DNA from: a virus
IMG/VR virus record: IMGVR_UViG_2563366762_000007
Coordinates: 635 to 64,634 of that record
Strand: one strand, 5' to 3'
Length of the DNA: 64,000 nucleotides
The position numbers and the translations under genes are program-made. Positions 5,880 through 63,913 of the stretch are shown in pieces (position 1 is the first letter of the stretch; each line of letters starts with the position of its first letter). Under the pieces are notes generated by a model that worked only from the letters and a program-made list of their open reading frames with translations, was not told where the DNA came from and searched no databases.

Positions 5880-5993
5880 ATCTAATCTGTCAACTCAACC
5901 CTGATTAATTTTAGGTTAAAATTTCACCCAAAAATATACCCTCGATATGTTTCCATAGACACACATCGAGGGTTAAAGTCGAGTTGATAGATT
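5880..5993. repeat. Element-end site cluster 3 (inverted degenerate sites plus hairpin)
   Basis: ATCTAATCTGTCAACTCAACCCT (5880-5902). Inverted copy 5978-5993 is identical to 62361-62376. Hairpin 5938-5973 contains GATATGTTTCC. Confidence 0.75.
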
Positions 5994-6038
5994 TACTTTT
6001 ATTTTTTTAAACCTAGCATTCACAAGACTTTCTAGGCT

Positions 6039-6074
6039 TTACTTTCTAGACATCAAACATACCGTCTCAACATG
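6039..6074 (-). repeat. Third copy of the rlmD 3' end (att junction)
   Basis: Minus strand reads HVETVCLMSRK*, versus rlmD HVECVVLMSRVEK*. It begins at the same CATG. Confidence 0.8.
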
Positions 6075-6203
6075 GCTTAAACCACCAAGCTTGATGTCTA
6101 AGCGTTTTTTATGGAATCTTACATCTACGGGAATATATCAACTTGCTAAGTACCTTATGAATCTAAAACTACAATCCCATACTGGAATCATTTATAGTCA
6201 TGC

Positions 6204-9200
6204 CTATTCGTTTTCTTGTTTATTATATTCGTCAATGATTGAAATCGTTGTATTTGCCACTTTACTACCAAGTGAAGCATACAACTTCTTATCTCCAATG
6301 ACATAAAATTCTTCTTTAGCCCTTGTAGAAGCAACATTCATCATATTAGGCTCGGTAACTGCCCATTTTGCAGCACCTTTACTATCGGTATCTGCACCGA
6401 GTACAAAATAAACAATCTTTGCCTCTTTACCTTGAAAAGTATGAACAGTACCTACATTTGTTGGTTTTCCTTTTTCTCGTTTTGTAAATCTAATATCGTC
6501 CAAAAATTTTGCAAGCTTGAACGCCACATTTCTAAATGGAGATATAACATAAATTTCATCCTTTAGTTCTGGATTTTCTTGCAAACGCTCATTTATTAAA
6601 TTTTTAAGTAATTCGGCTTGCTCCTTCACAAATTTATCATTCGCTTTTCCTGTTGAGTCATACCATTCCGATTTTCCATATGACTCTTCTTCATTCTTTC
6701 CTTGTACCATCAATCCATCATATGATATTTTATTTGAAATTGTAAACATTGGATAGTTCGAACGCCTATGTACCCAAAGTGGAATGCCTATCCACTCATT
6801 CTCATTCTTTCGGAATCCATATTGACTCGTATCATCCACAATTGTTTGAGTTGATGCATTAGCTGAAACATACTTTTCATTAACATTAAAATTTCTCCCG
6901 ATTAAATTCAAAATATTTGAATCTAACGTCAATACTGGTTTAATTTGTGAAGGATCTCCAACCACTGTTACTTTTTTGCTTCTAAAAATTGCACCTACAC
7001 TTGCCTGTGGTAGCGCTTGACCAGCTTCATCTATGAATAAATGACTAATTGAATTTTCATTAAGATTTTTAAACATTCTACCAAAACTAGCAAAAGTTGT
7101 ACTTACAACAGGGATAGTAAAGTTCAGCCATTGCCAAGATTCTAATATTAATTGATAACCATTATCTTTTGAATTGTAATCCAACTGTCGACTCCAAATA
7201 TTTCTAGCGGCTCTTAAATGTTTTTTATTTTCAAATAAAAATTGCTTTCTGACTTTTAGTGCTGATATAAAAAGCTTAGATTGCAAGATACGAAAGTTTT
7301 TATTAAACCAAGGATTAGACTTTTGAAGCTCTTCATACGATTGTGAAAAATCTAGTTCTTTAATATCACTTTGAGATTTTGTTTTCTCCAATGACACTAT
7401 ATTTCGCTCTATATCTTGTAATACTTTTTGTTGTGCTGACAACCATCTATTAAAGGCATTATTAGCCTTTTTAATTTGTTCTTTATTAGCATCTATTTTG
7501 ATAGCATTTCCTTTCATTGCATCATGTAAAGTATCTTTATTATTTAAGCATTCCCTTTTTTGTTCAGTAATACGATTCAAGGTGTCATTTGCATTGTTTA
7601 GCTTGTCGATATATTGATTAACTTTAGACCGATTAAAAATCTTTTGAAGCAATAATAAACCCGGTTTTTGTTCCTTAATAACATCAAAATTCCTTTCTGC
7701 CTGAGCTTGTTCATTATCTAATCTTTCCATTTTAACGGAAACATCCAACAAATCATTTTGTATTCTATTATTTTGCTCCTTCAACCTCTCTATTTCATTC
7801 GTTATTTCTGTTTCCAATGATAATAATTCTGTTCGTTTCTCACTTTCCTCTTGTTTAAAATCCCAGCTTTGCTTTTTATATTGATTTTTCAAATCTAAAA
7901 GTGGCCTAATTTCTTCACTATATTTTTGGATTCTATCTCTTTCAACTCTTAATTCATTATACAATTGTATAAATTCTTCATAAATATTTGAATTAGGTTG
8001 ATAATCATTTTCAAGATATTGTTCAATAAACTCTATTGTTAAAAGTAGTTTGTTAACGTTACTGGACGCGCCACCTTCTAACGAAAAAACTCCCCAGTTT
8101 CCTTTTTCCATCAATTCACTTTTTAGCTCTCGTTTATTAGAATAATCAACATCTAATTTTGAATTTGATATATCCCTAAAGTAATCTGCTTCTGCTAATA
8201 AATCCTGAAATTCGATACCGATATCTTTTTGTTTTGGCAATTCCATTACAATATTTTGAACTGCTCCATTATTAGAACTTGCAACAACGATATTCTTGTC
8301 TGAAATTAAATGTGGTAAAACTCCTAGTTTGGCATTTTTCCAATAAACTAAACTACCCTGGATACTTTTATCTGATAGTTGACATATAGCTAATGCTTGT
8401 TGAACAACTAAATCAGCAAAAATATCCTTCAACAGAGTCGTCTTTCCTGTTCCAGGTGGACCATTCACGCCACAAATGTTGTTATCTTCTTTCAAAGCTA
8501 AGTTAACCGCGGTTTGTTGCATAAGCGAAAGTGCATATTCGGGATTACTCGGAAAACGTCCTAACGGATAATTTTTTGGCTGTAAAATTTCCTTGAAAAT
8601 GTCCGGGTTAAAATTCGATGAATCTTTTTTACTATCAAAGTTAAATCTTTCACCTGAATAACCATTAAAATAACGACTCAAATTCTCTGTTTTTATGTTC
8701 TTTGCTTTTTGTAAATCATCAATAAAAAATGAATGTAAATTCGCATCATCATACTCTAAGTTTTTAACAAATCCATAACGGAAATTTTCGAAAGTAGCGT
8801 TATATTTTTGGAAAAGTTCTGAAATTGTTGTATTAAAACCTTCATCATCAAATCTTCTACTCAGGTCTTCACGAAATTTGTTTTCTATTTCCATAAATTC
8901 CTTTGGAAGTTCACCGTTAGCCCGAACATATCCACTCATCGTAAGGAAAAATTTTTCTGCAATAAAATTTAATTCTTTATCAAAATACAAACAAAATGTA
9001 AATTTATCAGAATTGCTTGTCTCTTCGTCAGTCGCCGGAATATTATATTTTTTCCTTAGAATATCAATTATTTCTTGGAAGTTAAAAATGTTAAAATACA
9101 ACACTATTCCCGATTTCTCAAAATCCTTCTCTGAACTTTTTTGTAGTTGCTCATTTAGAAACTCTAAAAAAAAATTAAACCACTCATTTGGCTTTGTAGG

Positions 9201-9296
9201 CAATGTTTTTAACTTTTTATCCTTTTTATCTATAGAACCTTCGGACAATTGCTCTATCGTGATCCAAGCATTTAAAATATTTTCTTTTTTATTCAT
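6204..9296 (-). CDS. SF1 DNA2/NAM7(Upf1)-like helicase with a coiled-coil insertion
   Basis: Motifs GPPGTGKTT, SSNNGAVQNI, DEAGQA, VGDPSQIKP, HRRS, ISPFR, GTVHTFQGKEA, NVASTRAK. An alternative GTG start lies at 9317. Confidence 0.85.
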   Translation of the reverse strand: MNKKENILNAWITIEQLSEGSIDKKDKKLKTLPTKPNEWFNFFLEFLNEQLQKSSEKDFEKSGIVLYFNIFNFQEIIDILRKKYNIPATDEETSNSDKFTFCLYFDKELNFIAEKFFLTMSGYVRANGELPKEFMEIENKFREDLSRRFDDEGFNTTISELFQKYNATFENFRYGFVKNLEYDDANLHSFFIDDLQKAKNIKTENLSRYFNGYSGERFNFDSKKDSSNFNPDIFKEILQPKNYPLGRFPSNPEYALSLMQQTAVNLALKEDNNICGVNGPPGTGKTTLLKDIFADLVVQQALAICQLSDKSIQGSLVYWKNAKLGVLPHLISDKNIVVASSNNGAVQNIVMELPKQKDIGIEFQDLLAEADYFRDISNSKLDVDYSNKRELKSELMEKGNWGVFSLEGGASSNVNKLLLTIEFIEQYLENDYQPNSNIYEEFIQLYNELRVERDRIQKYSEEIRPLLDLKNQYKKQSWDFKQEESEKRTELLSLETEITNEIERLKEQNNRIQNDLLDVSVKMERLDNEQAQAERNFDVIKEQKPGLLLLQKIFNRSKVNQYIDKLNNANDTLNRITEQKRECLNNKDTLHDAMKGNAIKIDANKEQIKKANNAFNRWLSAQQKVLQDIERNIVSLEKTKSQSDIKELDFSQSYEELQKSNPWFNKNFRILQSKLFISALKVRKQFLFENKKHLRAARNIWSRQLDYNSKDNGYQLILESWQWLNFTIPVVSTTFASFGRMFKNLNENSISHLFIDEAGQALPQASVGAIFRSKKVTVVGDPSQIKPVLTLDSNILNLIGRNFNVNEKYVSANASTQTIVDDTSQYGFRKNENEWIGIPLWVHRRSNYPMFTISNKISYDGLMVQGKNEEESYGKSEWYDSTGKANDKFVKEQAELLKNLINERLQENPELKDEIYVISPFRNVAFKLAKFLDDIRFTKREKGKPTNVGTVHTFQGKEAKIVYFVLGADTDSKGAAKWAVTEPNMMNVASTRAKEEFYVIGDKKLYASLGSKVANTTISIIDEYNKQENE

Positions 9297-9665
9297 GAAT
9301 TTTTTCTCTTCCCCCACTTACAGCACATTATTTTATATATCAATTGTATTAACTACCTTCTATATGTCTAGAAATTATCAGTCAATTCAAAGCAAAAGCA
9401 ACGATAAAAGCTGTAATGTATCCCTTTGTCAAGACACAAAAATCATTTTTTTAAGATAAACCCTCCTTCCCGGATTAATCTTTTGTTGCCTGTTCAAGTG
9501 TGGAAAATCCCCCCGTTCACCACCCTTGACCTTGTTTGTGTCCGTGATAGTGCTTTTATGGCGGATGGCGGAAAAACAGCCTTTAGGGCTCCATCCACAT
9601 CAAAGCGTATCACGGCCAATCACTTCTAATTTCCGCTGGCGGGACCCCGACCCCATAGCCATCAA

Positions 9666-9704
9666 GCTAACGAAGCATTGCATCTACTTAGTTAGCGTTT
9701 TTTT
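9666..9704 (+). terminator. Intrinsic terminator-like hairpin
   Basis: GCTAACGAAG...CTTAGTTAGC followed by a T run. Confidence 0.45.
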
Positions 9705-9935
9705 ATTTCTTTGATGATTTACTGATATAATAAAAAGGCCATACATAAATAAGCCTACTAAGGTTATGAATTCTTAGAATGTTCGATCCCTTGCTATTAT
9801 GTAACAGTGGCAACGGTTTGTTCATACGCTATGTCCAAAATGTCAAAAACAGTCTGCCTTTGCTTCCTGCGACTTTTCCTTCCGTTTGTCCTGATGCATT
9901 GAAAGGTTCTTATATTACAACTAATCAGATTGATT

Positions 9936-10080
9936 ATACATCTATCCTATCTCCACAACCCTACTGATGTTATCTAATCTATCTACTCAACCCTACATCA
10001 TTTTTCGGTTCTTTTTCCATCCATGGATATGTTCCCGCAAACACATTTTGGCACTTTAGGTTGAGTGGACAAGATAGATG
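9936..10080. repeat. Element-end site cluster 2
   Basis: 9936-9961 matches 62322-62347 at 23/26, and 9972-9995 matches 62357-62380 at 22/24. Inverted rlmD arm TGGATATGTTCCCGCA at 10024-10039 and an inverted motif at 10057-10080. Confidence 0.8.
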
Positions 10081-10109
10081 CAATCCAACAAACCCAGTAA
10101 ATTTAAGGA

Positions 10110-10145
10110 TTACACCCTTGACATCAAGACAACACACTCCACATG
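10110..10145 (-). repeat. Distal prophage att site, second copy of the rlmD 3' end
   Basis: 10119-10145 is identical (27 bp) to 62531-62557 and encodes HVECVVLMSRV*. Confidence 0.9.
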
Positions 10146-10188
10146 GCTCGAGAGGACAGAATGAATGTCATTTGAGCGTATCCGTTCT

Positions 10189-10242
10189 CGGAAACATATC
10201 CACTACGTTTTTGGCACTATCGGTAGGCGGGAACATATCCAC
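10189..10242 (-). repeat. Two extra copies of the rlmD VDMFP-coding arm inside the prophage end
   Basis: GCGGGAACATATCCAC at 10227-10242 is identical to 62566-62581. CGGAAACATATCCAC lies at 10189-10203. Confidence 0.8.
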
Positions 10243-10344
10243 TATAATCTTATAAAAGAAAGATGCGTCTTAATTTTAAATTAAGATTATGCTAATAATT
10301 TCATTAATAAATTGGAATTTAATAACCAAGCATATCTATAATCA

Positions 10345-11088
10345 CTAATAAAGAATATCAATCTCCGTAATCATCATTGCATGGTCTGGATACGCTGGTT
10401 TAATATCCCACACTTCACCAATCCTTATATTACTTTTTTGCGGATACTGCTCGTCATCTTCAATAAAATCCCACTTATATTCTGATGTTATTTGCAAATC
10501 ATCACTTCCTAATACATGGTCAACATCCCCAAAGCCATTAATAAGCTTAGTATTCTTTTCTACGTATACAATACTTGAATTGTCAATTTCTTGTGTATTA
10601 TACTTTAATTTTCCTATGTTGCATTTTGGAAACCAGTGACTCATACGATTTTTCTTTATATTAAAGTCTCCCGTACAAATAAAGGACTCTTTTAATTGCG
10701 ACAAATATTTATTCAATGGTTTAGTTTGTGAAGATGCATTAATAGGTGATAACATTCTAACTCCAATAACAGAAAACTTCTTATTACAACTATTAGTGTA
10801 ACTAATATGCAAAAAATTATAACATGAAGCCTCTTCGGTAGCTCTTATTAATTCTATTCCATTAGGTGCTATCTTCTTGCTTATTGCAATAAGTATTTGA
10901 TTACCGGAGAGAGCAATACTCTCTTTTATCCAATAACCTCCACTTAATGCATTCTTTATTCGAATATCATCTATATATTCCACCAAGCAAATTATGTCTG
11001 CCTGTTGTTCTAATATTCTATTATATACAAATGGCTTAACGAGAACCTTATTTGTCATCTTATGTATATTCCATTCTAATAATTTCAT
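10345..11088 (-). CDS. Endonuclease/exonuclease/phosphatase (EEP) family protein
   Basis: Motifs WNI, ADIICLVE, TGDFN, VDHV, PDHAM. Confidence 0.8.
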   Translation of the reverse strand: MKLLEWNIHKMTNKVLVKPFVYNRILEQQADIICLVEYIDDIRIKNALSGGYWIKESIALSGNQILIAISKKIAPNGIELIRATEEASCYNFLHISYTNSCNKKFSVIGVRMLSPINASSQTKPLNKYLSQLKESFICTGDFNIKKNRMSHWFPKCNIGKLKYNTQEIDNSSIVYVEKNTKLINGFGDVDHVLGSDDLQITSEYKWDFIEDDEQYPQKSNIRIGEVWDIKPAYPDHAMMITEIDILY

Positions 11089-11113
11089 ATTTGCTTGTCT
11101 CCTACACAAATCA

Positions 11114-12028
11114 CTATTTGTTTTTTGAATATACCCAAAATAAAATGCTATCTGTTAGTCTCAAACAAAATAGCGCATCTTCAATTGTTGGTGATTCAAT
11201 AGTATTCTCATTCCTATGGGTCCCGTAATCAGACATCATAGAGTAAATCATATAAATTGCTTTGGTCTTTGTCAGCTTTCCGTCTTTATTTTCATTGAAA
11301 AAATCTGCTAAATCCTCTTTTTTCAGGTCTGACTTAAGAGCCCTATCTAAGTCAGCAACCGTTGCAGTTGCACTGTCTCCGCTGGTGTTAAAGACACCTC
11401 TCATCCACTTTGCGAAATTTTCAGTCCCCTTATATTTTGAAAATATACTTACAATACTTGTCCTACATGATTCAATACAAGCTCCTGAATGCCCCTGTGT
11501 ATAAGCATCAATAGCAGATTTGTAAGCATCATATACTTCTTTATGGTTATTTTTTATCCATGACTCAACAGAAAACATCTCACTTACTCTGGAAAAGTCG
11601 CTTTCCATACAAGCAGAAACTTTAACTTTATCAAATTCAATGGCTATACTTAACCCTAAAATTTCGTATAGTTTAGCTAGCTCTTCAAAATCTTCATCGC
11701 TATCTTCAGAAATCCATCTTACATTGAAGGATTTAGTTATTTCTTTTAGCAGATTGATAATATCTTCATGCCTATTTTCCTTATACAAATCCGAGAAAAT
11801 ACTATCTAAACCTAGAAACACATCGTATTCCTCGTTATTATTCTCAAATTTGTGCGCATAGCCTTGATTGTAGAAATACGGCACTAGGTAATCCATATAT
11901 TTTTCATAAAGATCATTAAGTCCAACGCATTTTAATCTAGCCTTAAATTCTGAATTTTTCCTTATAAAAAAGCCTGGCCTGCTAAGAATTTCCGCAATTT
12001 TTGAAAGAATTATTTCCTTATCATTCAT
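11114..12028 (-). CDS. Putative abortive-infection (Abi_C/HEPN-like C-terminus) protein
   Basis: Helical C-terminus AYKSAIDAY...ACIESCRTSI...SDYGTHR...DALFCL. The family call is tentative. Confidence 0.4.
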   Translation of the reverse strand: MNDKEIILSKIAEILSRPGFFIRKNSEFKARLKCVGLNDLYEKYMDYLVPYFYNQGYAHKFENNNEEYDVFLGLDSIFSDLYKENRHEDIINLLKEITKSFNVRWISEDSDEDFEELAKLYEILGLSIAIEFDKVKVSACMESDFSRVSEMFSVESWIKNNHKEVYDAYKSAIDAYTQGHSGACIESCRTSIVSIFSKYKGTENFAKWMRGVFNTSGDSATATVADLDRALKSDLKKEDLADFFNENKDGKLTKTKAIYMIYSMMSDYGTHRNENTIESPTIEDALFCLRLTDSILFWVYSKNK

Positions 12029-12047
12029 TTTTTCACCCCATTAATGT

Positions 12048-12884
12048 TTAATACTTTTTCAAAGCAGGTAGCACCATCTCCAAATACTCCTGCCAATAAT
12101 CATTATCCCCTTCCATGTCATGAAGCCAATAGTACATTAACAGTATTTCAAATTCTTGCTTTCTTCCTTTTGTGAAGGATTTTTTCGGCATCTTTCTATA
12201 TAGGGAATCGAGATTAAAAAGATTACTTTTTTGCTTGTAATCATAATCGTACTTTCTCCAAGTATATTGACTCTTCTTTCTATGCGTTGATGGCCAAACA
12301 TCCTCGTTTTCAAAAAAACTATTTACCCAACCATAAGCAAAGGCAAGCAGATTAACCTGATACTTTGCCCATGTCTTGTCGATCCAATCAGTTATTTCTT
12401 CTGATATCGATGGTATTCCGAAATTAAACCTTTGCTCGCTTTCAACTCTATGATAGTCTTTAATAAAAAGAAAAAGCATCTCTGTTTGGTCTTTAAGAAA
12501 TGGTAACTTTTTAATGAGCTGGGAATAGCAATCATAGGAAGCATTTCTAAATTCACTATCAGTACTATACAGAAAGAAGAACTCATTCTCCTTCATAATG
12601 TTTCCGATGTATCTGTGCACTTGCTTCCCGTATTCATTGTAAATACCAACAACCCATTCTCGAACTTCAGAATCATACTCCCTAAGCTGCTTCCGATACT
12701 TCTCTAGCTTTTCATTATGGAGTACTGTTTTTTCTTCAGCTTCCGTAATATTCAGATAGTTGTTAAAATACTCGAATACATAATCAACACAGATTTTCAT
12801 ATTTTGTGCACGTGCATCAATGTCAAATTCATTGAGTTTATCTTCCTTTTTTCTTCGTGCAATGTATTCCTCAATACTTAGCAT
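12048..12884 (-). CDS. Hypothetical protein (278 aa)
   Basis: Long ORF with GAGGTG RBS, aromatic-rich and predicted helical. Confidence 0.75.
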   Translation of the reverse strand: MLSIEEYIARRKKEDKLNEFDIDARAQNMKICVDYVFEYFNNYLNITEAEEKTVLHNEKLEKYRKQLREYDSEVREWVVGIYNEYGKQVHRYIGNIMKENEFFFLYSTDSEFRNASYDCYSQLIKKLPFLKDQTEMLFLFIKDYHRVESEQRFNFGIPSISEEITDWIDKTWAKYQVNLLAFAYGWVNSFFENEDVWPSTHRKKSQYTWRKYDYDYKQKSNLFNLDSLYRKMPKKSFTKGRKQEFEILLMYYWLHDMEGDNDYWQEYLEMVLPALKKY

Positions 12885-12932
12885 TTAAACCACCTCAAGC
12901 TTTTTCGCTCTCATGGAGCAAACATATCACCC

Positions 12933-13037
12933 TCACAACTCACGTATTCTTTCCGTAATCATGGCTTTTCTTGCTTCATAAAACTTTTCGAAGTCCTCAA
13001 TTTCAAGTGATGCATTTCCGTTATTTCTACATAACAT
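12933..13037 (-). pseudogene. Short C-terminal remnant, GmrSD/DUF262-like tail
   Basis: Reads ...SLEIEDFEKFYEARKAMITERIREL*. Confidence 0.35.
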
Positions 13038-13052
13038 TAATTTTACCAATAT

Positions 13053-13811
13053 TTAATACGCACTTTGATACAATGTGCTTGTTTTACTACTATCTGATTT
13101 TTTTAAATTACAATCTTGACATGATAATTGAATGTTACACACGTCATTTATTCCGCCCTCATTTAATGATACAATATGATCAAAATGTTTTTCATTATCT
13201 TCTAACAATGAATATAATCCAGTTAAATCCCTTTTACAGAAAACACAACGACCTTTGTCCCTAAACAGTGCTGCACGCTTTACCCATTCTGGAATATACA
13301 CTCTTTTTCTTGGGTTGTCCTCAAATGCAACAGCCTGCTGATTATTAAATCTTAGTAGGAAATCTCTGTTTTGAAACAAGATATATTCGACTTCAATGGC
13401 AATATCATATATGACACCATCAAACATCCCATCTTCATATCTATTAAGGTATTCTATATATTCATTGTATGTTTCCAGATAATCCTCATGGTCAACTTTA
13501 AAATCATTGCTCAAAGAAATGTCTGTCCCTCTATATTTTAGAATAGCTTGATTTATCCAAGAGATAGGATTAAACTCCACAATTTCTCCTGAATTTGCTA
13601 TATGATTTGCCTGCTCATAAAAAACCCTTTCAATAAGCCATGAACAATATTCCCTCAATACAGATACTTTCGGAAACTCTTCTGGCTCTATTTCAAACTG
13701 CCGTTCCGTAAATTCAGCATTAGTGGTAACGTATTCAAACTTCCCCATACTTTCATTAGCAAGATGACAAAAATAGTACACATTAAAAAATTTTATATCT
13801 ATAGTTATCAT
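13053..13811 (-). CDS. HNH endonuclease (C-terminal domain)
   Basis: RDKGRCVFC...HFDHIVSLNEGGINDVCNIQLSCQDCNLKK. Confidence 0.85.
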   Translation of the reverse strand: MITIDIKFFNVYYFCHLANESMGKFEYVTTNAEFTERQFEIEPEEFPKVSVLREYCSWLIERVFYEQANHIANSGEIVEFNPISWINQAILKYRGTDISLSNDFKVDHEDYLETYNEYIEYLNRYEDGMFDGVIYDIAIEVEYILFQNRDFLLRFNNQQAVAFEDNPRKRVYIPEWVKRAALFRDKGRCVFCKRDLTGLYSLLEDNEKHFDHIVSLNEGGINDVCNIQLSCQDCNLKKSDSSKTSTLYQSAY

Positions 13812-13813
13812 CG

Positions 13814-14335
13814 CTACACCTCTTCGTTATAAAAACTTGATTTGTATTTCAATAACGTATCTTCAACTTCATGCCAGATTGTTACCGTTTCACCGTCATC
13901 CTCAAATACTTTACCGTGGCTCTTAGGCCCATCCAACTTCATCTGTGAGTAATTATTCTTAAAAGTCGGCACGTACAATTCCGGGTTGTTTTCGTCACTG
14001 CATAAGCGTTCCATCATGTCTATAGTAGCACGACCTGTGGTAGCCACTGCCTTAAAATAAGCACGGATGATTTTATGGTTATATTGATTCGGCTTAACAG
14101 CCCATACTGGGATTCGTTGATTTGCTTTTCCGTAAAAATCCTTGTTTGTATCCTCATTCTGTCTTGCTACTGTCTTTGGGTTATAGACTTGTGATGCTTT
14201 TTCAAAAGTTTTTGCAATATACCAACGCATACAACTTTCCACTGCGGTGTCTTGTGTTTCATTAGTTAAATTCAATGCGATGCGGAACTTCTCATATACA
14301 TCTGCATCCACTGTAAAGGTAACGCTCTTATTCAC
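13814..14335 (-). CDS. Putative DNA-binding protein (RHH-like N-terminus)
   Basis: KSVTFTVDADVYEKFRIAL...AVESCMRWYI shows a beta-alpha-alpha pattern. An upstream inverted repeat TTACAAAT/ATTTGTAA is present. Confidence 0.5.
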   Translation of the reverse strand: MNKSVTFTVDADVYEKFRIALNLTNETQDTAVESCMRWYIAKTFEKASQVYNPKTVARQNEDTNKDFYGKANQRIPVWAVKPNQYNHKIIRAYFKAVATTGRATIDMMERLCSDENNPELYVPTFKNNYSQMKLDGPKSHGKVFEDDGETVTIWHEVEDTLLKYKSSFYNEEV

Positions 14336-14438
14336 CGTTTACACCTCCGCTAATTACTCTATTACAAATTATACCACTGATTTGTAATTTGTAAATACTA
14401 ATCAACTAATTTGTATTGACTCATCAACAGGAACACGA

Positions 14439-14466
14439 AAAACACCCTGCATTTCAGCAAGGTGTT
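14439..14466 (-). terminator. Terminator after the recombinase operon
   Basis: AACACCTTGC-loop-GCAGGGTGTT followed by T's on the minus strand. Confidence 0.6.
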
Positions 14467-14489
14467 AGATTCTAATAACATTTTGCTAT

Positions 14490-54030: not shown

Positions 54031-54068
54031 AAAAACTAAGCATTCGTAAAGAAATACTTAGTATTTTT
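54031..54068. promoter_or_regulatory. Inverted repeat, candidate Xre operator
   Basis: ACTAAGCATT...AATACTTAGT, with a further GCTTAGT half-site near 54087. Confidence 0.45.
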
Positions 54069-54159
54069 AGATTATTGATTGAAACACGCTTAGTAAATTG
54101 CTATAATAGTAAATACGCATTAATAAAAACCATCCAATAGTGCTTGGAGGGCGTTAAAA

Positions 54160-54378: not shown

Positions 54379-54401
54379 AACTATTGAAGGAGGCGCAATG
54401 T

Positions 54402-55640: not shown

Positions 55641-55863
55641 AGTAATTCCCTATACTAATAGCGTTATTGCTCTGTTCCCAGATATCTTAGAGGCATTGGC
55701 ACAACAGGACATGTCCCCTAAAGAATTGTTTGAAATAACAACTTTTCGTAAAAAGGACATGGCTGATTTCCTGAGTGCTTTAAATTGCTTGTTTGCATTA
55801 GGTAAAATTGAATTAATTGAGGAAGGGAGGGTGCTTCGCTATGTTAAAGGAAATTCAGTGTGA
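55624..55863 (+). CDS. ABC-3C middle component (LmuC-like)
   Basis: MRLPNKVIPY..S...LNCLFALGKI. Small wHTH-like gene between the effector and the ATPase. Confidence 0.7.
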   Translation: MRLPNKVIPYTNSVIALFPDILEALAQQDMSPKELFEITTFRKKDMADFLSALNCLFALGKIELIEEGRVLRYVKGNSV

Positions 55864-57481
55864 TAAATTTGCACCGGATCATCGAGTTATCCGGTTTAAT
55901 TCAGGCCTAAATACAGTTTTAGGTAGCGCAGGCGGTAGCAACGCAATCGGAAAATCAACATTTCTATGGATTATAGATTATGTATTCGGCGGTGAAAGCT
56001 ATTACTCCCTAACTGATGATATAAAAAAGGAAATGGGTTCGCATATCATCTATTTCACTTTCGAGTTTGATGAACAGCCATACTATTTCTATAGAAGTAC
56101 GGATGATCCTAAAAACGTATATCGAAGCGATGAAGAGGGCCGATTCATTACAAAATTATCGCTAGAAGATTTTCGGAAATTTCTGTTTCAGGAATATAAA
56201 ATTGAGCTTCCTGCCCTTACATTTTCAGAAATAACCGAGCGTTTTTTCCGTATCTATGGTCGTGAAAATACACTTGAAAAGTATCCGTTGCTGGTAAAAC
56301 CACGTGAGCAGGATGAAAAAGCTGTAGATTTTCTATTAAAGCTATTTGGGCATTACAGAATTCTTGCTTCTATAAAAAGTATGGAGGAAGAACTCGGAAT
56401 TAAATCATCACAACTTAAGTCACGTCAGCGCCAGAAAGTGGATATAGAGAAAATTGAAAGTAACCAAAAAACAATAGAGTCGTTGAGGAATAGACTTCAA
56501 AAGCTAATGAAAAATAGTGAAGAAGCTCAATTAGCATTGTTCGGATTTGACACTCAAACGTTTGAACGAATTTCAGCAATCCAAAAAGAGTTGAATATCT
56601 TTGTTCGCAAGCGTAATCGCCTCCAATCACAGCTAAATGCTATAAAGAACAATATTGCTGAAAACAAAGTCGACACCGCAAGTGAATTTGATTCCTTGGT
56701 ACATTTTTTCCCAAACACTAATTTAAAGGCTTTTGAAGAGATTGAATATTTTCATAAAAAAATCAGAGAAATTCTAAGTGAAGAAATGGATGAGGAAATC
56801 GAGCGATTACAACCACTAATCGGTGAATATGACAAAGAGATTACGCGCCTTAATCGAAAAATCGAAGAATCTGGTCTTGCAAAAGAGATGTCTGAGAGGG
56901 TACTATCCCAGTGTGTTAATGTGTCTAAAAGCATCGATAAACTTGAAGAAGAAACAGCTGAGTTAATTCATCAAAAGGAACTTCAAGAAACACGAGCTGA
57001 ATCGGAACAAATACTTGAACAACTGTTGTTGCAACAAACAGAAAAGTTGGAGGAAATACAAGATGACATAAATCTGCGCATGGAAATAATAAATGGCGTA
57101 GTAACTGAGAGACAGGAGACCGCTCCTCTTTTGTATATTACTCCCCAAAAGGGAATCATCTTTGAAACACCTAGCAATACAAGTGAGGGAACAGCATACA
57201 AAAGCCTTGTTGTGTACGATTTAAGCATACTTGAATTACGGCCTATCCCTGCACTTATCCATGATTCAAATATTTTAAAGCGTATCGAGGATGTTCATCT
57301 GGAACGCATATTGGAGCGTTATCAGGCTAGTAGACGTCAGGTTTTTATTGCATTTGATAAAGCTGACTCTACAACTACAAAGGCTCATAAAATTTTAGAA
57401 TCGACAGCAATCTTACGCTTATCGGACGGAAATGAATTATTTGGTCGTTCGTGGAGTAAATACGAATCGAATGATTATTAA
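55841..57481 (+). CDS. ABC/SMC-like ATPase (DUF2326, LmuB-like)
   Basis: GLNTVLG...NAIGKST Walker A, a long coiled coil, and LIHDS Walker B. Confidence 0.8.
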   Translation: MLKEIQCDKFAPDHRVIRFNSGLNTVLGSAGGSNAIGKSTFLWIIDYVFGGESYYSLTDDIKKEMGSHIIYFTFEFDEQPYYFYRSTDDPKNVYRSDEEGRFITKLSLEDFRKFLFQEYKIELPALTFSEITERFFRIYGRENTLEKYPLLVKPREQDEKAVDFLLKLFGHYRILASIKSMEEELGIKSSQLKSRQRQKVDIEKIESNQKTIESLRNRLQKLMKNSEEAQLALFGFDTQTFERISAIQKELNIFVRKRNRLQSQLNAIKNNIAENKVDTASEFDSLVHFFPNTNLKAFEEIEYFHKKIREILSEEMDEEIERLQPLIGEYDKEITRLNRKIEESGLAKEMSERVLSQCVNVSKSIDKLEEETAELIHQKELQETRAESEQILEQLLLQQTEKLEEIQDDINLRMEIINGVVTERQETAPLLYITPQKGIIFETPSNTSEGTAYKSLVVYDLSILELRPIPALIHDSNILKRIEDVHLERILERYQASRRQVFIAFDKADSTTTKAHKILESTAILRLSDGNELFGRSWSKYESNDY

Positions 57482-57500
57482 CATAGGAGGATCAAAAGAA

Positions 57501-59810
57501 ATGGCTGCAATTGATGATTTATTGCGCCAAATTCCGGACACTTCCTTGCGTAGCCGCTTGGAAGAGGAATTTGCCCGCATTTCAAAAAATAAAAAATTTG
57601 GACTTGTATTTGAGGAACATATCCCTGAATGCACTCCACTTTATGAGGTTTCTATCAAACGTGGCTCTACTGTTGCACAAAAAACAGGCCATATTAATAA
57701 TGTATATACGGTGCTGAAATTAGATGGAGATACTGCCCTTTGTCGTAACAAAGCAACTGGTAATACTGAGAACATACCAATCACGGAGCTAGTTTCAGTT
57801 GCTCAATTTGGCGAGCCAATTTTCCCCACCCTCCAGCCTATTGATTCAGTTAAAAATGCACCTGATAGTAACTTATGGCATACAATCATTGAAGCAGACA
57901 ATTATCATGCCCTTCAGTTACTGGAATATCTCTACCCTAAGAAGGTTGATTGTATTTATATTGACCCCCCATACAACACCGGTGCGCGGGATTGGAAATA
58001 CAATAATAACTATGTTGATTCTAGTGACAACTGGCGACACAGTAAGTGGCTCTCAATGATGCAAAAGCGATTAAAGATTGCAAAAAGAATACTTGCTGAT
58101 GATGGTGTTTTGATTACTACAATAGATGATAATGAATATGCGCATCTATGGGTTCTTCTTCATGAGATTTTTCCAAACCTAACTCATACTTGCGTAACCA
58201 TTCAGCATAATCCCGGTGGAACTCAGGGTAAAAAATTCTCTGTAACTCACGAATATGCAATATTTTCATATTCAGCTGATAGTATTATTTACCGTAAACA
58301 GCATACTGGTGGCGATGTCTATAATCTAAGACGTTGGGGAAGTACCTCAGGTCGTTATGAAGGCGCAACATGTTTCTATCCCGTAATTTTAGACTCGAAT
58401 TATAACATTATCGGTTTCGGTGATTTACTTGATAAGGAATTACATCCATCAGCACAAGTAGAACACAATGACGATGGTACCATTTATGTCTGGCCTATTG
58501 ATAAAAATGGCATAGAAAAGAAATGGAGATATGGACGAGATACTGTAGAAACTGTTAGGGATCGAATGTATGTTGAAAGGCGAGGAGACCGAATAGAAGT
58601 AATTCTTCGTAGGGAAAGTGAACCACCTAAAACTGTCTGGACAGATCCGTTATGTAATGCAGAAGCCCACGGTACTGATATGATCAAGGCCATACTTGGT
58701 GGTGGCTTCTCATATCCCAAATCACTTTATGCAGTCCGCGAAGCGCTAACATTCGCAGTTTCGGGTAAGAAAGACGCATTGATTGTTGACTTCTTTGCAG
58801 GAAGTGGTACCACATTACACGCAGTAAATTTACTTAATGCTGAGGACAACGGAAACCGCCGCTGCATTTTAGTAACTAATAACGAAGTCTCAGATGATGA
58901 ATCAAAAACCTTGAAAAAAAATGGCTATAAGCCCGGTGATATTGAATGGGAAAAACATGGAATATGTCGTGCTATAACTTGGCCTAGAACAAAGTATAGT
59001 ATCCTTGGAAGACGTGATGATAGCTCTGTCTTAACGGGTGAGTACTTTACTACTCAGACTGTATCTGATGAAGTAGACCGTTCATTCTATCAGTTAAGTT
59101 TTGTCGATAACCCTACAGAATTAACAGCAGCTGCAAAAAAGCAAATTGTTTCTTTACTTCGAAATAAGGAAGGAAAGTCACAATTGCCGCAATCATTAGT
59201 AACCAAAGACTGTAAATTCATTGTTTCAAATAAACATACAGCATCAATTCTTTTTGATGTAAATGCAGTTGATGAGTGGTTATCTGCCATTGAAGAACAG
59301 GATCAAATATCAGACTTTTATATAGCCTCAAAATCGACTGCCATATTCAAGTCAATTAAGACACGTGTTTCAGAATTGCTAGGCCCCATTATTGTAACAT
59401 CACAAGTTAAACGTCCAATGAGCGATGGTTTTCCTGCAAATGCTGAATACTTCAAGCTAGAATTCTTGGATAAAAATCTTGTTTCATTGGGCCAACAGTT
59501 CCACGAAATACTACCATTACTTTGGCTCAAATCTGGAGCTATTGGAAAGCGACCAGAAGTAAATTACAATGAAGAACCAGAGATGTTAATTCTTCCGCAA
59601 AATGGCTTTGCTATTTTAGTCGATGAAACACGGTTCGCAGAATTTGCCGAAAAGCTTTCTGAAGAGAACGGTATCCAAATGGTCTATTTTGTAACTAACT
59701 CCGAGGAAGCATTCCGTGAAATGGCTGCCGGAGTAAAAGTAAATAACACATATCAATTATATCGAGATTATATCGATAACTTTGTGTTAGGAAGCAGGAG
59801 GGATTCATAA
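57501..59810 (+). CDS. Type III-like N6-adenine DNA methyltransferase (Mod)
   Basis: IYIDPPYNTG, FSYPKS, DFFAGSGTT (beta class), directly upstream of Res. Confidence 0.85.
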   Translation: MAAIDDLLRQIPDTSLRSRLEEEFARISKNKKFGLVFEEHIPECTPLYEVSIKRGSTVAQKTGHINNVYTVLKLDGDTALCRNKATGNTENIPITELVSVAQFGEPIFPTLQPIDSVKNAPDSNLWHTIIEADNYHALQLLEYLYPKKVDCIYIDPPYNTGARDWKYNNNYVDSSDNWRHSKWLSMMQKRLKIAKRILADDGVLITTIDDNEYAHLWVLLHEIFPNLTHTCVTIQHNPGGTQGKKFSVTHEYAIFSYSADSIIYRKQHTGGDVYNLRRWGSTSGRYEGATCFYPVILDSNYNIIGFGDLLDKELHPSAQVEHNDDGTIYVWPIDKNGIEKKWRYGRDTVETVRDRMYVERRGDRIEVILRRESEPPKTVWTDPLCNAEAHGTDMIKAILGGGFSYPKSLYAVREALTFAVSGKKDALIVDFFAGSGTTLHAVNLLNAEDNGNRRCILVTNNEVSDDESKTLKKNGYKPGDIEWEKHGICRAITWPRTKYSILGRRDDSSVLTGEYFTTQTVSDEVDRSFYQLSFVDNPTELTAAAKKQIVSLLRNKEGKSQLPQSLVTKDCKFIVSNKHTASILFDVNAVDEWLSAIEEQDQISDFYIASKSTAIFKSIKTRVSELLGPIIVTSQVKRPMSDGFPANAEYFKLEFLDKNLVSLGQQFHEILPLLWLKSGAIGKRPEVNYNEEPEMLILPQNGFAILVDETRFAEFAEKLSEENGIQMVYFVTNSEEAFREMAAGVKVNNTYQLYRDYIDNFVLGSRRDS

Positions 59811-62318
59811 ATGAGAGATATATTATTTCCTTTTCAGGAAACAGCCCTTGGTGAACTGCATTCTGCAATTAAGGATGCTCATGCAGTATGGCGTGAAAAT
59901 AAGCCTCAGATAATCTCGTTTTCCGCACCAACTGGTTCGGGAAAAACTATTATTATGACGACTCTTTTTGAAGAAATACTCTATGGTAATGAGGACAACA
60001 TTGGAGATCCAGATTCAGTATTTGTTTGGCTTTCCGATTCACCAGAACTTAACGAGCAAACACGCTTAAAAATTGAAAGCAAATCAGATAAAATCCCTGT
60101 TAGGGACTTGGTAACTATTGATTCAAACTTTAGTGCCGAGTATTTCGAAGGTGGTCACGTTTATTTTCTAAATACACAAAAACTCGGTTCTGATAAGCTA
60201 CTGACTTCATCATCTGATAAGCGGCAGTATTCCATATGGGAAACCCTTACTAATACTGCTAAACGGATTCCTAAAAAGTTTTATGTGGTGATAGATGAAG
60301 CACATAGGGGAACTTATACATCTGTGCAAGCAGAAAATAAGGCGCAATCTATCATGCAAAAATTCATTAAGGGTAGTGAAGATGACGGTCTTTGCGTCAT
60401 GCCTTTAATTATAGGTGTGACTGCAACTCCTCAGAGATTTGATAACTTAATTGCCGGAACGACTTCAACGGTTCAAAAAGTCATCGTCCCTCCTGAGCAG
60501 GTTCGTGAGTCAGGTCTTTTGAAAGATAGAATTATTATTCACTATCCAGATATTCAATTTAATGCTGATATGACCATGTTTAAAGGGGCAATTGATAATT
60601 GGCGCAAAAAATGCACTCATTGGAAGACTTACTGTGAGCGCGAAGATGAAAAAATGATAAACCCTATTCTTGTTATTCAAGTTGATGATGGGAATGATCG
60701 TATAGCAACCCAAACCGATTTGGGGGCTTGCATCGATTTACTAGAAGAATCGCTGGGACGCAAATTACAGCCTGGAGAAGCAGTACATACTTTTAATGAC
60801 CATGGCACACTTAAAGTACGTGATGTTGAAATTCAGCAAATTGAAGCATCCCGAATTCAAGAAGAAGAAAATGTGCTGATTGTGTTTTTCAAAATGAATC
60901 TTTCCACAGGTTGGGACTGCCCGCGAGCTGAAACGATGATGTCATTCCGCAGTGCCCAAGACTATACTTATATTGCTCAGTTGCTAGGACGTATGATACG
61001 TACACCTTTGGCAAGACGGATTTCTTCTGATGCTGAGCTTAATAGTGTCAGCCTATTTCTTCCATACTTTGATGAAGAAACAGTGAAGAATGTAGTTAAT
61101 GCCCTGCGTGACAGTGAGGCTGCTATGCCTACCGAAACAGGCACTAGTAAAGAGCTTGTTACACTTGGACGAAACCTTGCCTATTCCGATGTATTTGAGG
61201 CAATGGATAACCTCATAACTTATCGGATAGATTCATCTCGAAAGCAGGCACCACTTAAATTATTAATACAGCTTTCACGTGCACTGACGATGGATGGTAT
61301 TGACTTAGGGGCGCAGAAAGCTGTTAAAAATGCTGTTTTATCAAAAATGGATGGTGAGATTTCACGGATAAAAGAAAGTGGAGACTTTGACACTCGAGGG
61401 GCTTCAATTACTGGTTTTGCTCTCGGTACACTGATATTTGAATACGGAGACAATGCCTACTCCTTTGATGAAGAAACACAGACAATGACCATGTCCGATT
61501 TTGATATTTCCCGACATTTTGAGCAAGCTGGAAAGTTGTTGGGAGAGGGTTTACACAAGGAATATTGGATTCGTCATAGTACCCGAGACCATATTGATGT
61601 AAAAAAAGAAATCATCATTCTTACACATGATACTGATGCAATGGAAAGGATTAATGACTATGCTGAAGAAGAATTCATAACACTGTACGAAAACAACAAG
61701 CGATCCATTGCTAGACTTAGCGAGGCACGAAAGAATGTCTATGAAAGATTAACTAATGCTTCTGTACAACCGATATCTGTACCATGGATGTTACCAGATT
61801 CTATTGATTTTTCTAAACCAGATAATAGCAGTAAATTTGAGCAGCATCTTTATTGTTTAGAGGACGGCACATTTGAAACATCACTGAATCCATGGGAAAG
61901 CGGAGTTGTTACAGAAGAGCTTAACAATGGTGCTGTATGCTGGTTACGTAATCTTGACCGCAAAAAGTGGTCACTAGAAATCCCTTACGAAGTCAGCGGT
62001 GTCACCACTCCTATGTTCCCGGATTTAGTTATTGTTAGATCTGATGCACAAGGTTATGTTTTTGATATTTTAGAACCACACGATCCTAGCCGAAAAGACA
62101 ATTATCCTAAGGCAGTGGGTTTAGCAAAATTCGCAGAGAAGCATTGGGATATATTTGGCAGGATTCAGCTCATTCGACTTAAAAAAGGTGTAGATGGTCG
62201 TGAACATTTCTATCGACTAGATATGGGAAAAACAACGATTAGGAATAAAGTTCGTGGCATAACATCAAACGAGGAACTGGATAGAATTTTCGATACAGAT
62301 GCTGTACGAGAAGATTAA
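59811..62318 (+). CDS. Type III-like restriction helicase-nuclease (Res)
   Basis: APTGSGKT, DEAH, TATP, GWDCP, QLLGR, and C-terminal FPD...ILEPH. Confidence 0.82.
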   Translation: MRDILFPFQETALGELHSAIKDAHAVWRENKPQIISFSAPTGSGKTIIMTTLFEEILYGNEDNIGDPDSVFVWLSDSPELNEQTRLKIESKSDKIPVRDLVTIDSNFSAEYFEGGHVYFLNTQKLGSDKLLTSSSDKRQYSIWETLTNTAKRIPKKFYVVIDEAHRGTYTSVQAENKAQSIMQKFIKGSEDDGLCVMPLIIGVTATPQRFDNLIAGTTSTVQKVIVPPEQVRESGLLKDRIIIHYPDIQFNADMTMFKGAIDNWRKKCTHWKTYCEREDEKMINPILVIQVDDGNDRIATQTDLGACIDLLEESLGRKLQPGEAVHTFNDHGTLKVRDVEIQQIEASRIQEEENVLIVFFKMNLSTGWDCPRAETMMSFRSAQDYTYIAQLLGRMIRTPLARRISSDAELNSVSLFLPYFDEETVKNVVNALRDSEAAMPTETGTSKELVTLGRNLAYSDVFEAMDNLITYRIDSSRKQAPLKLLIQLSRALTMDGIDLGAQKAVKNAVLSKMDGEISRIKESGDFDTRGASITGFALGTLIFEYGDNAYSFDEETQTMTMSDFDISRHFEQAGKLLGEGLHKEYWIRHSTRDHIDVKKEIIILTHDTDAMERINDYAEEEFITLYENNKRSIARLSEARKNVYERLTNASVQPISVPWMLPDSIDFSKPDNSSKFEQHLYCLEDGTFETSLNPWESGVVTEELNNGAVCWLRNLDRKKWSLEIPYEVSGVTTPMFPDLVIVRSDAQGYVFDILEPHDPSRKDNYPKAVGLAKFAEKHWDIFGRIQLIRLKKGVDGREHFYRLDMGKTTIRNKVRGITSNEELDRIFDTDAVRED

Positions 62319-62321
62319 ATA

Positions 62322-62413
62322 ATACATCTATACTGTCTCCTCAACCCCAATAAAAAATCTAATCTATCAACTCGACCCTATCGTTTTCAGGGTAGTTGAT
62401 ATGTTTCCTCAAA
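62322..62413. repeat. Element-end site cluster 1 (prophage, rlmD-proximal)
   Basis: Same two motifs as 9936-9995, plus an inverted GTTGATATGTTTCC at 62395-62408. Confidence 0.8.
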
Positions 62414-62424
62414 GAATAAAAATG

Positions 62425-62490
62425 AGGGTTTCCCGACTTTAACATCCTCGGCAAAGTAGCCGTGAGCAAAGTTCAATGTCAGGAAACCCT
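62425..62490. terminator. Long hairpin between convergent Res and rlmD
   Basis: AGGGTTTCCCGAC...GTCAGGAAACCCT (12/13), flanked by A/T-rich runs. Confidence 0.5.
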
Positions 62491-62515
62491 TTATTTATCA
62501 GTGCTTTGAATAGCC

Positions 62516-63913
62516 TTATTTCTCCACCCGTGACATCAAGACAACACACTCCACATGTGACGTATGCGGGAACATATCCACCGGCTGCATCCACTCCAGC
62601 CGGTACTCCTTCAGCAAATACGCCACATCACGGGCCAGAGTAGAAGGATTACACGACACATACACGAACCGCTGTGGCTTCGCCTTCAGAACCGTATCCA
62701 GCAGCGCCTTATCACACCCGACACGCGGCGGGTCTACCACGATCACGTCTGGTCGATCGCCCTGCTTCACCCATTTTGGCAATAGCTCCTCCGCCTTGCC
62801 GACATAAAATTCCGCGTTCGCAATCCCGCTTTTCTCCGCATTTCGCCTAGCATCTTCAATCGCTTCCGGTATCACTTCAATCCCCCGCACCCGCTTCGCG
62901 TCCGGGGCAAGCCAAAGCGAGATCGTGCCTACGCCGCAGTACGCATCCACAACGAGTTCCTTCCCGGTCAAACCGGCCGCTTCTCTCGCTGAATTGTATA
63001 GCTTAAGCGTCTGGGCCGGGTTCAACTGAAAGAATGCGCGCGGCGACAGCGAGAATTTCACATCACCCAGCGATTCGTCAATTGTCTCCTTGCCCCATAA
63101 AGTCTCCGTTTTATCGCCAAAAATAAGCGACGTTTTTTGCTTATTAATGTTCTGATTGATGCTGGTCAGCTTCGGCAGACGCATACGCAGCTCAGTAATT
63201 ATTTCTTTTTTACGCGGTAGCTTCTCTTCTGCTGTTACGAGAATAAGCTGCTGCTCGCCGGTTTCAAAGCCAACACGCGCAATAATCGTCCGGATAACTC
63301 CGGTTCGCTTGCGCTCGTTATATACTGGAATCGACAGCATCTCCAGCACTTCCCGTGCCGCCGCGATCATCTTGTTCGTCTCTGGATGCTGAATCGGACA
63401 ATCGCCAATGTCGATAAGCTGGTGGCTATCCGCCGCATACAAACCAGTAATGATGCGGTCGCCCTGGGTTCCGGCTTGTAACTGGGCCTTATTGCGGTAC
63501 TTCCACGGCTCCTCCATGCCGAGAATCGGGCGCAGCGGCAGTTCTCCCACATCGGTATATTTCTCAAACGCACCGCGTACGATGTCCTCTTTCGCCTTTA
63601 ATTGACCTTCATAGGTCATGTGCTGCATTTGGCAGCCACCACATTCATTGTATACCGGACAGGACGGTGTTTGGCGCAAATCAGATGCCTGCTTTATTTT
63701 TTTTACTCTTCCTTCAGCGAAGGTAGGCTGCACTTTCGTGATTTTTACCTCCACGACCTCTTCAGGCAGAGCACCTGGTACGAATACAGCTTTGCGTTTA
63801 TAATAGCCGATGCCTTCACCGTTGATACCAATACGCTTTATTGTCAGCAAAATCTCCTGCCCGATTTTTAACTGCACATCGATTCCCTTTTTTCCTGTGT
63901 ATTTCTTATTCAT
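62516..63913 (-). CDS. rlmD: 23S rRNA (uracil-1939-C5)-methyltransferase
   Basis: TRAM domain, CPVYNECGGC, YRNK, AFFQ, DAYCGVG, DPPR, YVSCNPSTLARD, DMFPHTSHVE. Confidence 0.96.
   Translation of the reverse strand: MNKKYTGKKGIDVQLKIGQEILLTIKRIGINGEGIGYYKRKAVFVPGALPEEVVEVKITKVQPTFAEGRVKKIKQASDLRQTPSCPVYNECGGCQMQHMTYEGQLKAKEDIVRGAFEKYTDVGELPLRPILGMEEPWKYRNKAQLQAGTQGDRIITGLYAADSHQLIDIGDCPIQHPETNKMIAAAREVLEMLSIPVYNERKRTGVIRTIIARVGFETGEQQLILVTAEEKLPRKKEIITELRMRLPKLTSINQNINKQKTSLIFGDKTETLWGKETIDESLGDVKFSLSPRAFFQLNPAQTLKLYNSAREAAGLTGKELVVDAYCGVGTISLWLAPDAKRVRGIEVIPEAIEDARRNAEKSGIANAEFYVGKAEELLPKWVKQGDRPDVIVVDPPRVGCDKALLDTVLKAKPQRFVYVSCNPSTLARDVAYLLKEYRLEWMQPVDMFPHTSHVECVVLMSRVEK
62525..62557 (-). 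repeat. rlmD-proximal prophage att site
   Basis: 32/33 identical to 10113-10145. GC content drops on the phage side. Confidence 0.9.

Follow-up and report, generated by a model that had tools for sequence, protein, structure and literature searches.

The rlmD gene, encoding a 23S rRNA uracil methyltransferase, is the integration target in the DNA analysed here, a stretch of 64,000 nucleotides (the window, positions 635 to 64,634 of the IMG/VR virus record IMGVR_UViG_2563366762_000007). Three integrative elements, hereafter E1, E2 and E3, lie head to tail in the 3′ end of this gene by tandem accretion, and their ends carry, beside the crossover, two sorts of extra repeats, i.e. M units and R repeats, which extend ~110 bp to one side of the crossover and ~230 bp to the other. 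By their sequence, the M units mimic the rlmD-side half of the target site. The arm anatomy is conserved in related elements, and contigs of other strains exchange partners exactly at the junction between E1 and E2. We consider the chances about even that the M units and R repeats are accessory sites, i.e. putative binding sites.

Tandem elements in rlmD and the layout of their ends

The rlmD reading frame runs on the minus strand from 63913 to 62516 (465 aa), with residues 1–458 being 96% identical to the product of an uninterrupted rlmD of the same genus; the part from the start down to 62558 is chromosomal, having a GC content of 0.47–0.48 versus 0.29–0.46 in the elements. At junction J1, rlmD switches at CATG to foreign DNA, by which the frame is completed as HVECVVLMSRVEK and a stop, and at the internal junctions J2 and J3, both AGC|CATG, the replacement tails read HVECVVLMSRV and HVETVCLMSRK, respectively, each ending at a stop. 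The native rlmD tails in five same-genus genomes (e.g. HVESVASLIYKGSK and a stop) differ from these, so all three array tails are element-borne. The original prediction, made from the letters alone, had proposed a tandem array in rlmD with serine-recombinase-type junctions and three tails beginning at the CATG of 62557, 10145 and 6074; the tails and both internal junctions read as it stated on the minus strand, and the array is supported. Its extent was set too short, the last tail also being element-borne and the array continuing to a fourth junction (J4) just left of the window (contig C201:371–379, window −263 to −255). The order is thus the rlmD 5′ part, E1, E2, E3 and a fragment of an insertion sequence (IS). 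At J4, the E3 right arm (C201:380–480, with two M units), which is nearly identical to that of E1, meets a DDE transposase gene in its middle, the two being fused at a common GCCACGTGG. An intact copy of this IS is present in contig C127, and neither the reciprocal IS junction nor the native rlmD tail was found in a search of the 5.31-Mb assembly. The arm–IS fusion at the shared GCCACGTGG resembles the product of a serine-recombinase event at a secondary site.

E1 encodes two large serine recombinases (LSR1 and LSR2) and, between them, a small protein with the recombinase domain (RD) only. The half-site at the right end of the elements, the P arm, always finishes ...CTCNAGCCA in dozens of hosts, ending CCA, and the sequence that follows varies, which places the crossover most probably at the CA in the His codon of H-V-E. 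By inspection, GACAT lies 24 bp left of this CA in P, and its complement ATGTC lies 24 bp right of it in P′, the half-site in the replacement tail; judged from the sequence, the core of the rlmD elements is an ordinary inverted-repeat LSR site. In the B arm, i.e. the rlmD-side half-site, GATAT starts 21 bp from the CA, ~3–4 bp nearer to the crossover than in P and P′ (also by inspection), an offset that appears to be in the direction of the 5-bp attB/attP zinc-ribbon shift described in the accessible text of Rutherford et al. (2013, PMC3783163).

Outside this core, the M unit spans ~20 bp (nTnGATATGTTYCC-N4-AC), and one or two such units, ~40 bp apart, are found at each right end here. Those in the left arms are inverted relative to rlmD, and those in the right arms have the orientation of rlmD itself and point toward the crossover (positions in Table 1). 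In the right arms of E1 and E3 two M units are spaced by 39 bp, with the nearer one 44 bp from the CA, and in that of E2 a single degenerate unit was found. The 14-mer GTKGATATGTTYCC has six matches in the assembly, all in the array, two of which lie left of the window at −213 and −174. Allowing at most one mismatch, GATATGTTYCC matched the window 10 times versus 2.36 expected, a count reached by 0 of 100 shuffles, and seven of the 10 matches are at the junctions. The predicted copies of the rlmD arm away from the crossover, inverted as well as direct, were confirmed by these counts and controls.

The R repeat is 23 bp long (AGGGTYGAGKWGAYAGDWTAGAT), with one to three copies per left end. A 21-nt R pattern yielded six matches versus 0.01 expected, all within the three clusters, a comparison that is partly circular as the pattern came from these copies. 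E1 and E2 each have two direct R copies ~31–32 bp apart, and E2 and E3 additionally have one inverted copy. The left arms, which align at 66% mean column identity, follow one order, i.e. the tail, a terminator hairpin (in E1), an inverted M-like unit and the R repeats; the E1 hairpin folds at −33.8 kcal/mol (z −5.5), with none of 200 shuffles folding as well. The E3 left-arm arrangement is also found in loci L120 and L165. In E1 and E3 the R clusters abut the 3′ ends of cargo genes, so they are not promoters of those genes.

Recurrence of the extra units in related elements

The B-arm consensus of 35 rlmD genes from the phylum is CAR CCN GTN GAY ATG TTY CCN NNN ACN NNN CAY GTN GAR, and the M unit (nTn GAT ATG TTY CC N4 AC) keeps the T at −2 and the AC at +15/+16 that are invariant in these genes and varies at the same places as the gene does. 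At positions outside the search pattern, the conservation profile of the proximal unit (M2) correlated with that of the B arm (r = 0.68, p = 0.004, the best of nine registers tried), and that of the distal unit (M1) did not (r = 0.10), so that support for the match with the B arm is partial. The M units do not have the 6–9 bp that adjoin the crossover, so they look like half-sites that could be bound but not cut. That the M-like units track the host's own B arm was rejected, since the rumA gene of Streptococcus suis has GATTTATTTCC versus GATATGTTCCC in the elements, and is also contradicted by the inverted units of L102, L107 and L109, which differ from the adjacent B arms.

The M units recur at the ends of related elements, first of all in loci that were chosen independently of M. 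Among seven LSR1-selected viral loci with a full 10 kb downstream, five have the M doublet, one has an M unit fused, without a core, to an R cluster, and one has no M unit and an LSR2 truncated at residue 252. Selection by a 20-nt pattern of the P half-site gave 14 viral contigs, whose arms are closely related to each other; two M units were present in 13 of the 13 with at least 120 bp upstream, and the proximal unit was present in the fourteenth (51 bp upstream). Two R-selected tandem junctions (L103 and L111) carry 2–3 M-like units (GACTTGTTCCC, GAAATGTTCCC and GACCTGTTCCC). In species-representative genomes (one genome per species), at least 120 stretches contain the M doublet, and the P core stands at the expected distance in 67 of 81 doublet matches (80 loci of those stretches), and the sequence after it is a host rlmD tail, of many different kinds, or the tail of another element; at least one match (L185) is an unrelated repeat. 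These records are mostly of Bacillota, with some titled Bacteroidota (Segatella, Phocaeicola and Leyella), Collinsella and a Limisphaerales metagenome-assembled genome. The copy number of M ranges from 1 to 4, some families having three or four units with a period of ~41 bp. Sequences beyond the outermost unit (upstream of M1) are unrelated between loci, and in the diverged arms of L094, L128, L129 and L135 the units persist with changed spacers. The original prediction had named a lack of conservation at related ends as the outcome that would speak against it; instead, the extra motifs are kept in many species.

Several variants were observed along with these arms. In L146, L161, L148, L182 and L167 the arm adjoins sequence that is not an rlmD tail (secondary sites). 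A coreless form (L051, L092, L105 and L108) has the distal M unit and, ~170 bp on, an M-like unit with three R repeats, with no crossover core or tail between, and resembles two elements fused by deletion of the att core. In L113, L137, L153, L160 and L174, LSR2 is reduced to its C-terminal ~225 aa (query residues 298–522) 2.9 kb upstream of an intact doublet, these being decayed elements that retain the arm. A group II intron (L070:17595–19469, Rfam RF02003 and RF00029; same start in L093) directly follows the TTGATG of an element-borne rlmD tail, i.e. lies inside the P′ half-site. For 26 P arms the locus extends at least 5 kb upstream, and five of these have an LSR in that stretch; among the other 21, whose loci are short, an upstream tail-like site ~5.1–5.3 kb off was found in L118 and L189 only.

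The R repeats also hold their place in other left arms. In nine of 12 viral contigs with the R pattern, the core, tail, (terminator), M-like unit and two to three R repeats follow in this order, with the rlmD B arm directly upstream in five of the nine; the remaining three comprise one truncated tail and two coreless forms. Across 31 left arms, a repeat pair starts 154–190 bp from the crossover in 17, with lags of 27–32 or 39–41 bp. R matched none of 49 junctions with a host-type tail, and its strict consensus was present in 5 of 18 with an element-type tail. The sequence type of R differs between lineages (GATTAGAT, GATTTAGATG and AGAACTGCT) and M is constant, for which reason the predicted reading of R as a variant M arm does not hold in general. 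The fixed position of R together with its lineage-specific sequence suggests a reader encoded by the element.

Exchange between strains was evident from public runs, which are available as contigs only. The contigs of runs X5, X7 and X8 depart from the window sequence exactly at 10145, beyond which X5 and X8 enter one common sequence and X7 another, so J2 is a true exchange point between strains. A second X5 contig bridges J2 and passes through an E1-like arm into different cargo; the IS junction is likewise present in contigs of X5 and X7. E2 and E3 are linked in all four runs compared, which come from other studies and whose contigs span J3. At 9328–9336, upstream of the E2 helicase gene, ~1.25 kb of additional DNA is present in the X8 contig, which comes from a different strain under the same organism label.

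What the extra units may do

We infer from sequence that proteins bind the M units and R repeats and that this affects recombination. The P side has between one and four direct M units, spaced by ~40 bp and coming to within 44 bp of the crossover, which would serve as B-type half-sites that cannot be cleaved, with additional integrase subunits or the RD-only protein being loaded onto them beside attP or attR. On the P′ side, the replacement tail and terminator are followed by one inverted M-like unit and, starting ~155–190 bp from the crossover, by one to three R repeats, which would bind an element-specific factor. M and R together might then form a higher-order complex tuning synapsis or directionality, and E2 and E3, being cassettes that keep both att ends, would be moved in trans, in the manner of the cis-mobilizable elements (CIMEs) discussed below. 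A bolder version is possible, if somewhat on the improbable side, namely that this dual serine integrase family represents the first LSR system with a multi-site attP assembly of ~350–400 bp, in which phased uncleavable attB half-sites would load integrase or RD-only protein and, with lineage-specific R repeats, build an intasome-like complex controlling direction as well as the pick-up and movement of cassettes.

A number of observations weigh against a role as accessory sites, and most of them would be expected if the extra units were passengers, i.e. if M were decayed or slippage-amplified copies of a captured rlmD fragment and R a tandem-repeat remnant, which persist through recent spread of the end module and closeness to the att core, the recombinases using the ~50-bp core only. 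According to the accessible text of PMC3783163, LSR sites are simple and published LSRs need no auxiliary DNA. The profile of the distal unit (M1) is uncorrelated with the B arm (r = 0.10). An exact M unit is absent from the P arms of two more distant relatives with the recombinase trio and an intact attP, Terrisporobacter phage TPDSL_ph1 (54% LSR1 identity) and a Gardnerella phage (52%). (No viral contig was matched by a 27-nt string taken from the P′ arm of TPDSL_ph1.) Of 31 left arms, 14 have no R pair, and the inverted M-like unit matches M exactly in only about half of such arms, others reading GGAAACAAGTC or GGTAACCTGTC. The variable copy number of M is like that of slippage-prone repeats. 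Many P arms are near-identical across hosts, including records from several phyla, which fits very recent spread and makes part of the conservation a matter of recent common descent, and the species-genome scan was itself selected by the M doublet. (One P arm was observed in near-identical form in L123, L125, L126, L130, L146, L148, L150, L161, L165 and L166, under titles of Bacteroidota, Bacillota and Collinsella, indicating either very recent cross-phylum spread or bin contamination.) Passengers are nonetheless hard to reconcile with the diverged arms, which keep the 20-bp units and their ~40-bp phase while the spacers have changed, or with a conserved block that stops exactly at the outermost M and the innermost R, with unrelated cargo adjoining. 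What M retains are the positions that do not vary in the target, R stays in place as its sequence type changes, and precise serine recombination offers no route by which a B arm could be captured. On balance we regard the passenger explanation as rather unlikely.

Less probable still is a function outside recombination, with R being iteron- or operator-like (an origin for replication of the circle, a packaging signal of a satellite or a repressor operator) and M titrating integrase or repressing transcription that reads out of the element. The direct R repeats are ~3 or 4 helical turns apart and are accompanied by one inverted copy, a layout of direct repeats plus an inverted copy that is shared by iterons and the lambda cosB region; the R types are lineage-specific, as expected for element-specific DNA-binding proteins; and the recombinase-less E2 and E3 retain R. 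Against this, neither the cargo nor the orientation of the genes alters the distance of R from the crossover, E2 and E3 contain no recognised gene for replication or packaging, the phage terminase genes are ~25 kb away, and the M units copy the recombination target itself.

Gene content of the elements and comparison with known systems

E1 is, as judged from its genes, a complete and functional-looking prophage, with PHROGs matches to terminase, portal, major head, tape measure, DNA polymerase, primase-helicase and exonuclease, and it also encodes an amidase. LSR1 and LSR2 both score above the cut-offs for PF00239, PF07508 and PF13408, as LSRs do, share the motif YCRVSTDS in their translations and are 38% identical to each other, and the 137-aa protein is 31–33% identical to the RD of either. 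Of 80 related viral-contig loci retrieved with LSR1 (72–98% identity), 76 contain the gene of the 137-aa protein, the other four loci being cut off within LSR1, and the LSR/small/LSR trio is annotated in Streptococcus phage Javan105, Terrisporobacter phage TPDSL_ph1 and a Gardnerella phage. In a six-frame search of the whole genome, the only PF00239 matches on contig C201 were the two in E1, and none of the genome's nine PF00589 (tyrosine recombinase) matches fell on this contig. Rfam and tRNA scans of the window gave no matches, and the E1 left arm had no blastn match in the phage collection. The three-protein recombinase of the original prediction stands as a conserved module, at 14490–18068 and not beside rlmD; the genes next to rlmD are defence genes (Table 1), which comprise ABC-3C CTD11/HamA-like, DUF2326/LmuB-like, type III methylase and type III restriction subunit genes. 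Five further cargo ORFs lie at 10345–14335, between LSR2 and the E1 right arm, the single family match among them being an HNH nuclease that is weakly PtuB-like, and this block may be an uncharacterised defence or accessory block.

E2 has one large ORF (6204–9317), an SF1 helicase matching MkoC in PADLOC, and E3 carries a PDC-S14 gene at 4968–5867 (plus strand) together with several ORFs of no known function. As to the predicted defence cassettes, the genes of E2 (MkoC-like) and E3 (PDC-S14) are defence-like, and E1 is a 52-kb prophage rather than a cassette. No recombinase was found among the E2 and E3 ORFs by Pfam and PADLOC scans or the six-frame search; transfer genes were not specifically searched.

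Table 1. Positions of the elements, junctions, arm features and selected genes in the window
Feature	Coordinates	Strand	Basis or remark
rlmD 5′ part up to the crossover, with B half-site	62558..63913	-	Identity to same-genus rlmD; GC
Native M sequence in rlmD (codons V-D-M-F-P), outer part of B half-site	62568..62581	-	
Junction J1 (CATG)	62554..62557	-	Crossover most likely CA
Junction J2 (CATG)	10142..10145	-	
Junction J3 (CATG)	6071..6074	-	
E1, complete prophage, 52,412 bp	10146..62557	-	PHROGs matches
E1 replacement rlmD tail, containing P′ half-site TTGATGTC	62516..62557	-	
E1 terminator hairpin then U run, after restored rlmD	62424..62499	-	
E1 left-arm M-like unit, inverted relative to rlmD	62398..62408	+	
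E1 left-arm direct R repeats, 62357-62377 and 62326-62346	62326..62377	-	31 bp apart
E1 left-end (rlmD-proximal) defence cargo	54384..62318	+	
LSR1, 529 aa	16479..18068	-	Resolvase, Recombinase, Zn_ribbon_recom domains
Small protein, 137 aa, RD only	16065..16478	-	PF07508 sole domain found
LSR2, 523 aa	14490..16061	-	Resolvase, Recombinase, Zn_ribbon_recom domains
E1 right arm: M1 10229-10242, M2 10190-10203, P half-site 10146-10175	10146..10242	-	
E2, cassette without recombinase, 4,071 bp	6075..10145	-	Six-frame search: no PF00589/PF00239
E2 left arm: tail 10110-10145, inverted R 10059-10079, inverted M 10026-10036	9940..10145	-	
E2 left arm, direct R copies	9972-9992 and 9940-9960	-	
E2 right arm: P half-site 6075-6104, degenerate M 6129-6142	6075..6142	-	
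E3, recombinase-less element, ~6.3 kb	1..6074, extending to window -254	-	
E3 left arm: tail 6039-6074, inverted R ~5970-5994, direct R 5880-5900	5880..6074	-	
E3 left arm, M within palindrome	5944-5954	-	

The closest known counterparts are the streptococcal rum-locus prophages (phi-m46.1/phi-Ssu_rum type), whose tandems with ICEs (integrative and conjugative elements) and serine integrase pair IntI/IntE are treated in the accessible text of Huang et al. (2026, PMC13651849) and which share the target, rumA being rlmD. According to that text, the phage LSR pair in streptococci binds att probes, and the phage as well as the phage–ICE tandems need this pair in order to excise, singly or together. 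Like dual-LSR prophages of the rum locus, E1 lies at the rlmD 3′ end with a replacement tail and has its LSR-small-LSR module after the lysis genes; the trio in Javan105 is the same, and one S. suis rum-locus record has only a 96-aa fragment of the first trio gene. Over 97 bp, both M units included, the E1 P arm is 93.8% identical to S. suis rum-locus records. In one S. suis record rumA, a ~4.7-kb cassette, the M doublet with core and the next element follow in this order, an architecture like the one here, and tandem accretion with small recombinase-less cassettes is found there too. Unlike in the streptococcal systems, LSR1 is only 35–56% identical to the streptococcal phage proteins compared, the host is of another family, no ICE is present, and the cargo is defence here versus resistance genes there.

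With canonical LSRs (phiC31, Bxb1 and A118/LI), as portrayed in the accessible text of PMC3783163, the system shares the domain set and the two inverted half-sites around a central dinucleotide; it differs in having two distinct LSRs plus an RD-only protein instead of one enzyme, and in a simple core flanked by conserved extra units, whereas canonical sites are 40–50 bp with no auxiliary DNA. SCCmec/CcrAB arrays at rlmH (SCC, staphylococcal cassette chromosome) are likewise built with two different LSRs in the 3′ end of an rRNA methyltransferase gene whose frame is restored, and include recombinase-less cassettes. The ‘SCC-like’ label of the original prediction is nevertheless an analogy only, since the target is rlmD and not rlmH (orfX), the autonomous member is a phage, and the best scores of the LSRs against CcrB, 134.9 and 141.1 bits, are far below the cut-off of 900 (Ccr cut-offs 700–900). 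Extra recombinase-type sites beside the crossover are otherwise found as sites II and III of Tn3/gamma-delta res and as the arm sites of tyrosine integrases, and by analogy a higher-order complex could form on the M units beside the crossover. In res, the accessory sites are inverted dimer sites serving resolution, and the arm sites are read by a separate domain of the tyrosine integrase; the M units, unlike these, are direct repeats mimicking one half of the partner site (attB).

In being att-flanked, recombinase-less and in tandem with an autonomous element of the same site, E2 and E3 fit the CIME concept and the accretion-mobilisation model (accessible text of Guedon et al. 2017, PMC5704250): E2 is flanked by J2 and J3 and E3 by J3 and J4, each with P and P′ arms. 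CIMEs are described in that text mainly for ICEs as well as IMEs (integrative and mobilizable elements) with tyrosine integrases, whereas the partner here is a serine-integrase prophage, and E2 and E3, unlike CIMEs, keep long and structured arms. The array and its logic, i.e. accretion at rumA/rlmD with recombinase-less passengers, are already known, as far as the accessible texts of PMC4701971, PMC5704250 and PMC13651849 go. For the multi-site end architecture no description was found in open-access literature text, and the words ‘accessory’, ‘inverted repeat’ and ‘direct repeat’ are absent from the accessible text of PMC13651849.

The array itself is thus ordinary and already described for relatives, and it is the conserved extra repeats that are unexpected for serine integrases. 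LSRs are valued and modelled as enzymes of two short sites, and a family with conserved, phased half-site mimics would change this picture; if the ends are truly multi-site, they would offer a handle on directionality control in two-integrase systems. The M doublet with its core is a practical mark by which such elements, and the recombinase-less passengers with them, can be delimited, and the at least 120 stretches with the same arms include streptococcal rum-locus elements with resistance genes.

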